NCBI RefSeq assembly: GCF_001677475.2
Contig: NZ_CP015229.1
DNA length: 64,000 bases
Strand: one strand, 5' to 3'
DNA from: Escherichia coli
Lineage (GTDB): Bacteria; Pseudomonadota; Gammaproteobacteria; Enterobacterales; Enterobacteriaceae
This document shows positions 61,529 to 62,688 of this stretch, piece after piece. The position numbers and the translations under genes are program-made. Under the pieces are notes generated by a model. It did no database searches and was not told the DNA's origin. It was given only the letters and a program-made list of their open reading frames with translations. Each line of letters opens with the position of its first letter. Position 1 is the first letter of the stretch.

Positions 61529-61900
61529 ATGTCATTGCAATATGGCTGGCAAATCATGGATGCAACGGGCAGGGTGGTTACGGATACGTCTGCAATTATG
61601 TGCAGACGTTTATTCTCATATCATGTTCCGATCATTGAAGCACTGGCATCAAATATCCCGTGGTCAGTGACATTTGGTGTCAGTTTTAACAATGGAACCC
61701 CATTCACACATTGTGTGACACGGAAGGGGATTACGGTGCCTTCCGGCAGGGTATGGTATCCGGTGGCACCGGATATTATCATCAACGGTAACAGCGTCAC
61801 CTTAACCTATACAGCAAGACATGTTTCATATCCTGATGATTTGGGGTATCTCCTGGCTGTTGGCGGTGTGGATGTTCATTGTGGGGTTTACCACCGATGA
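61529..61900 (+). CDS. Hypothetical protein (123 aa), paralog of the next gene's N-terminus
   Basis: ORF; N-terminus MSLQYGWQIMDATGRVVTD resembles MSGYGIQLINDYGLTVAD of the next ORF; stop overlaps next start (ATGA). Confidence 0.35.
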   Translation: MSLQYGWQIMDATGRVVTDTSAIMCRRLFSYHVPIIEALASNIPWSVTFGVSFNNGTPFTHCVTRKGITVPSGRVWYPVAPDIIINGNSVTLTYTARHVSYPDDLGYLLAVGGVDVHCGVYHR

Positions 61901-62688
61901 GCGGTTATGGCATTCAGCTAATTAATGACTATGGACTGACAGTGGCAGATGCGGAAGATGTGAATTATGTTTTGCGAAGTGCCGGTCAGTTCAGTAATGG
62001 TCATTTTATCTCCGGCGGGAACACGACGAGCGCAATCAGTCTGATAACAACCGGAATGAACAGTCCTTTATTGTTTCTGAAGATGAATACAAATAATTCG
62101 AGGCTGACACAAAAAACCGGGGTCAATAAGCTGTCCCCTGATTTTGTTAATCCCGGAACATATATATCGGTGACAAGTATAGACGTGTTTAAATGGTGGA
62201 ATATAAATATTGGCACGGTTCAGTATTATATTTTTGACAAGTGGATACCGCCGGAGCGAAGTTCATACGGTATGCAACTGTTTGACGGTTCAGGAGGAAT
62301 TATATTTGATTCCGGGTGGTATTTTCTGAAATTACGGGATGTGAAATGGCTTGAACCGCAATATCCAAACCATTCAGGGCATGAGAGCGGTAGTAACTGG
62401 AGTAATGTCGGGCATGTTTCCGATGATGTCAATAACACAGCATTATCAATGCCTCTGGGCAGGGGCTGGATTGAGTCATCCTTACAGGGTGGATATTACT
62501 ATAATGAGTGTTGTCATCTTGACGGTAACGGTAATCTCTATATATCCATAATACCGACAGGTGTTTATCTCGATATATCACCGACAGGAGGCTGGGTTGG
62601 CTCAATGAAAACCCAGGTCATGGTTGCGGATGTATCCGGCTTACCGACGAATTATAACCCTGTGGAGATAAGGAACGTTAACGGTTAA
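61897..62688 (+). CDS. Hypothetical protein (263 aa) with internal repeat of the YG.Q..D..G motif
   Basis: Internal start of ORF 61879..62688; motif recurs at SSYGMQLFDGSGGIIFD; Gly/Asn/Ser-rich. Confidence 0.35.
   Translation: MSGYGIQLINDYGLTVADAEDVNYVLRSAGQFSNGHFISGGNTTSAISLITTGMNSPLLFLKMNTNNSRLTQKTGVNKLSPDFVNPGTYISVTSIDVFKWWNINIGTVQYYIFDKWIPPERSSYGMQLFDGSGGIIFDSGWYFLKLRDVKWLEPQYPNHSGHESGSNWSNVGHVSDDVNNTALSMPLGRGWIESSLQGGYYYNECCHLDGNGNLYISIIPTGVYLDISPTGGWVGSMKTQVMVADVSGLPTNYNPVEIRNVNG

Follow-up and report, generated by a model that had tools for sequence, protein, structure and literature searches.

A gene pair exchanged together with the end of J as a probable two-chain receptor-binding module in a lambdoid prophage of Escherichia coli

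Between the central tail fibre gene J and a side tail fibre gene of a lambdoid prophage in Escherichia coli (assembly GCF_001677475.2, contig NZ_CP015229.1), two short open reading frames (ORFs), here called ORF1 and ORF2, occupy the lom position. What do these genes do, and why do they follow J so closely? We examined them within a 64,000-nucleotide (nt) stretch of that contig, hereafter ‘the window’, in which all features reported below lie on the plus strand. The initial annotation, made from the sequence, had left both genes without a function and placed them in a hot spot for accessory genes. By predicted fold, synteny and 65–75% identity to proteins of phage IME253—though not by Pfam—the pair belongs instead with a characterised tail-fibre family. 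We propose, with a probability of roughly 0.78, that ORF1 and ORF2 form a two-chain receptor-binding module on the tip of J and constitute a host-range cassette. Given such a module, the outer-membrane protein FepA is its likely receptor, at somewhat better than even odds, because ORF2 is 75% identical to its counterpart in IME253, the only characterised relative. We found no paper characterising the two proteins, which are annotated as hypothetical everywhere.

ORF1 (61529-61900; 123 amino acids (aa), 13.6 kDa) and ORF2 (61897-62688; 263 aa from its ATG, 29 kDa, all-beta) encode soluble proteins, the proposed small and large chains of the module. They share an ATGA stop/start overlap at 61897-61900, the basis of their translational coupling. 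A mechanical ORF list opens ORF2 at TTG 61879; we used ATG 61897 instead, because all homologues begin with M-x-x-YG at that ATG. The pair lies directly downstream of a J homologue in the tail operon: only 9 nt separate the J stop from the ORF1 start, the ORF1 ribosome-binding site (GGAG, 9 nt upstream of ORF1) overlaps the J stop codon, and no promoter was found between J and ORF1. The gene lengths and the overlap given by the initial annotation proved correct at these coordinates, and the coupling it proposed is supported by conservation, the small and large genes overlapping by 4 or 8 nt in all 11 loci tabulated; in several of them J and ORF1 overlap as well. At the 3’ end of ORF1 (~61880-61896, the same positions in all loci), the conserved C-terminus ..GVY[NH] is encoded by GGGGxGTTTA, which seems also to serve as the large-chain ribosome-binding site and would then constrain both the protein and the signal.

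Both proteins lack a signal peptide and a membrane span (Kyte-Doolittle means over 19 residues peak at 1.18 and 1.05), and neither matched Pfam or NCBIfam, Lom/Ail included, the PDB by sequence, or PADLOC defence profiles at E ≤ 0.1; ORF2 returned nothing from Pfam even at E ≤ 10. The features that define Lom/Ail proteins (signal peptide, beta-barrel, Pfam/NCBIfam match) are thus absent from the pair. Among PHROGs, ORF1 matched phrog_2427 (5e-5) and ORF2 phrog_4062, both families of unknown function, with further ORF2 matches to phrog_3370, 6061 and 425.

The pair is rare. Of 5426 complete E. coli genomes, 7 carried it, several of them from food or human-associated sources, and a full HMMER scan of 1.84 billion representative proteins returned only 139 relatives, mostly of 220-270 aa. 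It was also found directly after J in lytic Rtp-like Drexlerviridae (Braunvirinae), namely IME253, Rao1, TR3, ZL19 and phiA2-1, the latter isolated on an fhuA deletion host. More distant pairs occur in Klebsiella Webervirus VAC2, in Brenneria phage BREN6 and in prophages of Serratia, Mixta, Erwinia, Rosenbergiella and Phytobacter; on a metagenomic contig, the pair follows a Phage-tail_3 J analogue. In every related locus examined, a small gene of 102-162 aa and a large one of 224-289 aa came after J, the order of the two being reversed in Pseudomonas phage vB_PpS_SYP (SYP).

Comparison with the lambda-like prophage of E. coli CE10 delimited the exchanged segment. Positions 55337-60757 are 93% identical to CE10 at the nt level (J residues 1-849 are 92% identical), and homology resumes at 62732. 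The intervening cassette of ~2 kb, 60758-62731, comprises J residues ~832-1084 together with ORF1 and ORF2. Its counterpart in CE10 is a lambda-type J C-terminus plus lom, which places the pair in the lom position, and its flanks are 93% and 91% identical between the two prophages. That the genes sit where lom is expected, yet without Lom likeness or a signal peptide, had been noted before; the CE10 comparison, the Pfam and NCBIfam searches and the hydropathy profiles all agree with it. At the right edge of the cassette (62732-62769), the resumed CE10 homology leads into a terminator-like hairpin at 62741-62762, with a 9-bp stem containing 8 G-C pairs, followed by the T run TTTTTTG. The GC (guanine plus cytosine) content is 58.5% in the J body and drops to 50% in the cassette (50.3% over 60758-61519), then 47% and 43%; the GC content of T1-like phages, 44%, is near the cassette value (PMC6499177).

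The cassette border divides J itself (58265-61519; 1084 aa; central tail fibre/tip attachment protein). Its N-terminal ~831 codons (58265-60757) are of the lambda type common to ordinary lambdoid prophages. The C-terminal part within the cassette (60758-61519), which shares no nucleotide homology with CE10 and lacks a lambda-type receptor-binding domain, combines a coiled-coil insertion with a fibre segment and a short tip. The last 239 aa of J align to positions 824-961 of the 1163-position lambda_TipJ profile. In RefSeq/PGAP (NZ_CP013662.1, CP48_RS08375), J is listed as a pseudogene (‘incomplete; missing C-terminus’), and the feature stops before the stop codon. The reading frame is intact, and the pseudogene call is probably an annotation artefact, J being flagged as truncated because the lambda-type receptor-binding domain is missing and its function would be encoded separately. 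The profile positions, the RefSeq flag and the replaced lambda-type end all describe a J without a C-terminal receptor-binding domain of its own. What it has instead is a proposed docking tip formed by its last ~30 residues (61427-61516), whose consensus, GGWRxSKxxNxxxxTDxNNVVRVxxGxL, is common to all J proteins preceding such a pair, in J bodies only ~28% identical. The long, heptad-rich, coiled-coil-like insertion at J residues ~850-1000 (60800-61200) lies inside the cassette and is not present in the lambda-type J of CE10.

A natural exchange between two lytic phages links this slot to the receptor. IME253 carries the same two genes (HOR61_gp60 and the next gene; 123 and 265 aa) with the same ATGA overlap, in the same post-J slot and behind a related J tip. 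IME253-type proteins are 65% (ORF1) and 75% (ORF2) identical to those of the window over 100% of their length; unlike the window prophage, IME253 is a lytic T1-like phage, and its J body is only 28% identical to the window J. Knock-out, complementation and adsorption experiments showed that IME253 needs FepA and TonB (PMC6499177); the receptor is known for the phage only, the proteins of its pair being uncharacterised. IME253 and Rtp share 97% nt identity through J until ~31 codons before its stop, and their J proteins are 98% identical over 1095 residues. There the two phages diverge, IME253 carrying ORF1 and ORF2 and Rtp the unrelated rtp44 and rtp45. Within the extent of the locus retrieved, identity of 95% resumes downstream, in a block that includes the lateral-fibre region.

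The receptor specified by Rtp-type loci is LptD (PMC8594841; PMC12685063). The Oekolampad receptor-binding protein, whose structure was solved on LptDE, shares 33% identity with Rtp44; Rtp45 is the exclusion lipoprotein (PMC8594841; PMC12685063). Between the near-identical IME253 and Rtp, the allele in the post-J slot changes together with the receptor, the receptors being those given in the literature. Receptor-specificity loci directly downstream of gpJ, with alleles matching receptors, have been described (Maffei et al. 2021, PMC8594841). The J tip has been reported as a specificity-associated feature and within-family identity >30% as predicting the receptor, a rule reported for four other J-locus families (bioRxiv 10.64898/2026.04.02.716166). 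With 75% (ORF2) and 65% (ORF1) identity to a member whose receptor is known, the pair lies above that value. A FhuA paper (J Virol 2023) treated J itself as the receptor-binding protein and is silent on the pair.

For structure prediction, ORF1, a linker and ORF2 were modelled as a single chain of 411 residues from a paired alignment. The fused model is all-beta and confident, with a predicted local distance difference test score (pLDDT) of 85.5 and a predicted template modelling score (pTM) of 0.86; uncertainty is confined to the linker and the opening residues of each chain. Residues 31-120 of ORF1 have pLDDT above 88 in this model, and ORF2 modelled alone gave a pLDDT of 87.5 and a pTM of 0.87. 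The predicted structure matches that of a receptor-binding protein solved in complex with its receptor, and the pair is predicted to adopt the three-dimensional fold of DUF6453, the LptD-binding family. One of 63 members of the ORF2 alignment also matches Pfam DUF6453 (6.8e-4), but the suggested link to the solved LptD-binding protein comes from the predicted structure. Among BFVD entries, phage proteins with 314-334 aa cover both chains when aligned and those of 220-260 aa the ORF2 part, and one virus has a 128-aa and 262-aa pair matching ORF1 and ORF2, respectively. We infer that ORF1 and ORF2 together may be the counterpart of the whole single-chain protein, ORF1 giving the third domain, in agreement with the BFVD lengths, the threefold motifs of Rtp44 and the one DUF6453 match.

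A motif of ~17-20 aa, YG-x-Q...D-x-x-G, occurs in three copies across ORF1 and ORF2. The first (YGWQIMDATGRVVTD; 61541-61585) spans ORF1 residues 5-19 and is predicted to form a beta-hairpin; the second (YGIQLINDYGLTVAD; 61906-61950) spans ORF2 residues 4-18; and the third (SSYGMQLFDGSGGIIFD; 62260-62310), at ORF2 residues 122-138, falls in the most conserved stretch of the family, columns P118-D138 of the ORF2 alignment being invariant or near-invariant. The threefold layout is also seen in the pairs of T1, HK022, SYP and one metagenomic contig, and because it recurs in every homologous pair examined, the motif goes beyond chance. In SYP (4992-5977), where the large gene (224 aa) precedes the small one (102 aa) after the J analogue, both chains open with it (MPTGFQAFNDGG, MPSGLQVYGADG).

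Copies of the motif at both N-termini and inside ORF2 had led the initial annotation to call the two proteins paralogous. The motif is indeed there, but the paralogy itself stands only in part. Comparison of ORF1 with the C-terminal half of ORF2 by hhalign gave P = 1.3e-5, with just ~19-20 residues aligned; the corresponding values were 2e-3 for ORF1 against the N-terminal half and 1.2e-3 for the two halves of ORF2 against each other. A hidden Markov model of the motif, built from the internal copy, recovered the ORF1 N-terminus from the six-frame window at a marginal E = 0.068, and reciprocal motif-model searches in the six-frame window were not significant. Taken by itself, the sequence evidence for paralogy is weak, the likeness being limited to the motif of ~20 aa; it gains conviction from the recurrence of the motif in all homologous pairs. 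The best sequence-level argument for kinship between the small protein and the latter half of the large one comes from SYP, its small chain matching positions 106-180 of the ORF2-family PHROG profile (E = 0.003); residues 111-156 of its large chain match the ORF1-family profile (E = 0.0025). Beyond these weak cross-hits, it is in the structural model that paralogy finds its support, where ORF1 would behave as a third domain of the fold built by ORF2.

Together, these observations suggest how the module might work. J, without a lambda-type C-terminal receptor-binding domain, would form a trimeric central fibre ending in a short conserved tip. Translational coupling would keep ORF1 and ORF2 in fixed proportion, and the one domain of ORF1 and the two of ORF2 would assemble into a compact all-beta body of three related domains with the fold of the Oekolampad/Rtp LptD binders. 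One ORF1/ORF2 heterodimer would sit non-covalently on the J tip, its variable loops binding an outer-membrane protein on its extracellular side (FepA, the TonB-dependent transporter of enterobactin, being the most likely) and thereby committing the phage to DNA ejection. The unit formed by the end of J, ORF1 and ORF2 may pass between temperate lambdoid phages and lytic T1-like ones through recombination. Such a mechanism would fit the published framework of post-gpJ receptor-binding proteins, receptor-matched alleles and the J tip as a compatibility element.

Several points weigh against a receptor-binding module. That the proteins attach to J, enter the virion, form a 1:1 complex and bind a receptor, and which receptor this is, are all steps that we infer. 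When the profile of the ORF2 family was compared with that of the LptD binders, hhalign gave no significant match (E = 0.2). The IME253/Rtp swap takes in ~290 nt more downstream, with a small lipoprotein gene, so that it maps the determinant to the cassette and not to ORF2 by itself. Superinfection-exclusion lipoproteins are usual beside these loci, and no lipobox ORF was found ≤1.5 kb downstream in the window; an adjoining cognate exclusion lipoprotein, frequent but not obligatory in such loci, is therefore missing here. Finally, 25–35% of residues differ from IME253, and these differences are concentrated in variable loops, so that the receptor of the window phage could differ from that of IME253.

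This last point sustains the alternative that survives best, namely that the module is real but is directed at another outer-membrane protein, for example a different TonB-dependent transporter (CirA, Fiu, FhuE or IroN) or a loop-altered FepA. ORF2 and ORF1 depart from IME253 at 25% and 35% of positions, the changes clustering at ORF2 residues ~31-45, 64-72, 85-92 and 159-183, which vary within the family and have lower pLDDT, and identity falls to 31–55% for the family members in Klebsiella, Serratia and Erwiniaceae. Yet the full-length identity of 75% far exceeds the >30% level, and the sole characterised member uses FepA. Provided that the module reading holds, we consider a different receptor possible but unlikely.

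It is also conceivable, if improbable, that only ORF2 binds the receptor and that ORF1 is a non-structural chaperone or an adaptor between J and ORF2. Small genes beside fibre genes often encode chaperones, and genes co-located with J-locus receptor-binding proteins have been termed ‘accessory proteins’ (bioRxiv 10.64898/2026.04.02.716166). However, fibre chaperones usually come after the fibre gene, whereas ORF1 precedes ORF2. The motif is common to both proteins, the fused model reaches its pTM of 0.86 over all 411 residues, and single-chain relatives of 314-334 aa span both chains, which argues for ORF1 as part of the receptor-binding body.

Could the pair instead be a structural part of the tail tip, such as a cap, plug or side-fibre anchor, with specificity residing in J or Stf? 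Its location in the tail operon and the long coiled-coil distal part kept by J would suit such a role, but J ends in a ~30-residue tip without a globular domain, the fold match is to a protein solved with its receptor, and IME253 and Rtp differ in receptor despite J proteins that are 98% identical and a lateral-fibre region within the 95% block; we regard this as very unlikely. Least credible is the accessory cargo (moron) implied by the initial annotation—a lysogen-expressed defence, superinfection-exclusion or virulence function in the lom slot—which the lom position, the lower GC content than in the flanks, the terminator after ORF2 and the PHROG label of the related T1 gp31 family (‘moron, membrane associated protein’) might suggest, but against which stand the syntenic occurrence in strictly lytic phages and the coupling to J (invariable co-exchange with the J tip, absence of a separate promoter between J and ORF1, an ORF1 ribosome-binding site overlapping the J stop, J/ORF1 overlap in several loci), along with the lack of a signal peptide, membrane span or PADLOC match and the predicted fold of a solved receptor-binding protein.

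The proposed two-chain module can be set beside several known systems. Alike in layout are T1 gp32/gp31, HK022 gp25/gp26 and, by annotation, N15 gp22/gp23, each a coupled small and large pair between J and cor. Their small chains have ~100 aa and their large chains 212-229 aa, their J tip is similar (..RVxxGRL), and the motif copies of the T1/HK022 type (MAYGISTWDANG, MSYGAFIDVNG, PRWGMAIWDASGKLV) are the same three as in the window. They differ from the window in the shorter large chain, in being followed by cor and in their receptor, FhuA. With respect to the T1-type families (phrog_557 plus phrog_425), ORF2 matched phrog_425 marginally (E = 0.0046) and ORF1 did not match phrog_557. Further cross-links run from T1 gp31 to phrog_425 and phrog_3370, and from HK022 gp25 and the SYP small chain to phrog_2427.

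The LptD binders RBPOeko and Rtp44 (DUF6453, PF20051; PDB 9rpt, 9rpw, 9rqi) occupy the same slot after J, and Rtp44 has three G-h-x-h-x-[DN] motifs ~100 aa apart, similar to the motif of the pair. In contrast to the pair, they are one chain of ~310 aa rather than 123 plus 263 aa, encoded on the opposite strand in Rtp; the J tip and the receptor (LptD) are different from those of the window, and there is no significant sequence similarity. Phage T5 provides a parallel in pb5 on pb4, where a separately encoded receptor-binding protein sits non-covalently on a trimeric central fibre and targets a TonB-dependent transporter (PMC8594841); pb5, however, is one large chain, and its gene lies away from the J analogue. 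In the lambda arrangement, which fills exactly the 60758-62731 stretch in CE10, receptor binding resides in the C-terminal domain of J and lom encodes an exported Ail/Lom beta-barrel, whereas the window has a J cut down to its tip and two soluble proteins.

Post-J porin- and transporter-binding proteins were recently described as unrelated families (bioRxiv 10.64898/2026.04.02.716166). We tentatively put forward a different idea, to which we give slightly less than even odds: the types directed at FhuA (T1 gp32/gp31), FepA (the pair studied here) and LptD (DUF6453) might all represent a single ancient beta fold, pseudo-threefold and built of three domains. The hairpin motif would stand at the start of each domain and dock onto one chain of the trimeric J tip, and the fold would be encoded either as one chain or as a 1+2 split, in either gene order. 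If true, this would explain how a monomeric adhesin is seated on a threefold fibre, and would provide a general rule by which such modules could be found and swapped.

Parts of this picture are already known, the locus type having been described and the FepA dependence of IME253 published. Modestly new are a putative FepA-type module in a lambdoid prophage, with exact cassette borders; a two-chain (1+2 domain) form predicted to match the fold of the solved single-chain LptD binder; and the placement of T1/N15-type gp32/31 pairs in the same architecture, unlike the published description as ‘unrelated’. For annotation, two hypothetical proteins and a J probably wrongly flagged as a pseudogene become readable as a host-range module, with a receptor prediction (FepA) for a rare prophage type. 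The cassette would be exchanged between temperate lambdoid and lytic T1-like phages, and its mapped borders could serve for receptor re-targeting. An architecture shared by post-J receptor-binding families would help receptor prediction from genomes. FepA-directed phages are also of interest for phage steering, as loss of FepA costs the cell enterobactin-iron uptake.

Lipoprotein genes accompany several of these loci. In IME253-type phages, a convergent 61-aa lipoprotein gene lies directly after ORF2; in Rao1 it occupies 6953-7138 on the minus strand (MKKLIVITAMILAGCSGG...), beside a gene for a 34-aa hydrophobic peptide (7140-7244, minus strand), and the same lipoprotein gene is present in IME253. 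Because its position and size resemble those of Cor, Llp and Rtp45, the 61-aa lipoprotein is a candidate superinfection-exclusion factor acting on FepA. The window differs here, a tblastn search with the IME253-type protein finding no counterpart in it. Small lipoprotein genes also follow the pair in the related loci L016 and L020.

The window does encode a lipoprotein of 113 aa (MNKTILFCTIIALTGC...; 57857-58198; phrog_914, unknown function) between the tail genes I and J. Its gene has a terminator-like hairpin of its own (58222-58242) and a moron-like placement, and distant homologues (E 1e-6 to 1e-12) are found beside I/J in the prophage-like loci L012-L015. The protein is possibly an exclusion factor. 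We rejected it as the cognate exclusion factor of the pair: 336 of 5426 E. coli genomes have it, whereas the pair is in 7, and it is also present in prophages with a lambda-type J and lom, so it is not tied to ORF1 and ORF2.

Outside the cassette, a stf-like side tail fibre gene begins at 62779 and runs to 64000, where it leaves the window. It matches PHROG tail-fibre families with E down to 1e-103 and is labelled ‘prophage tail fiber N-terminal domain-containing protein’ in RefSeq. A further terminator-like hairpin lies within the ORF1 coding sequence at 61586-61609, with a 9-bp stem (ACGTCTGCA...TGCAGACGT) and a T-rich tail; this may be a chance occurrence. The 34.8-39.7 kb region of the window has zero ORFs of ≥200 aa. 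The prophage also contains a Met-CAT and an Arg-TCT tRNA gene at 34822-35075, a feature of many lambdoid phages from pathogenic E. coli.

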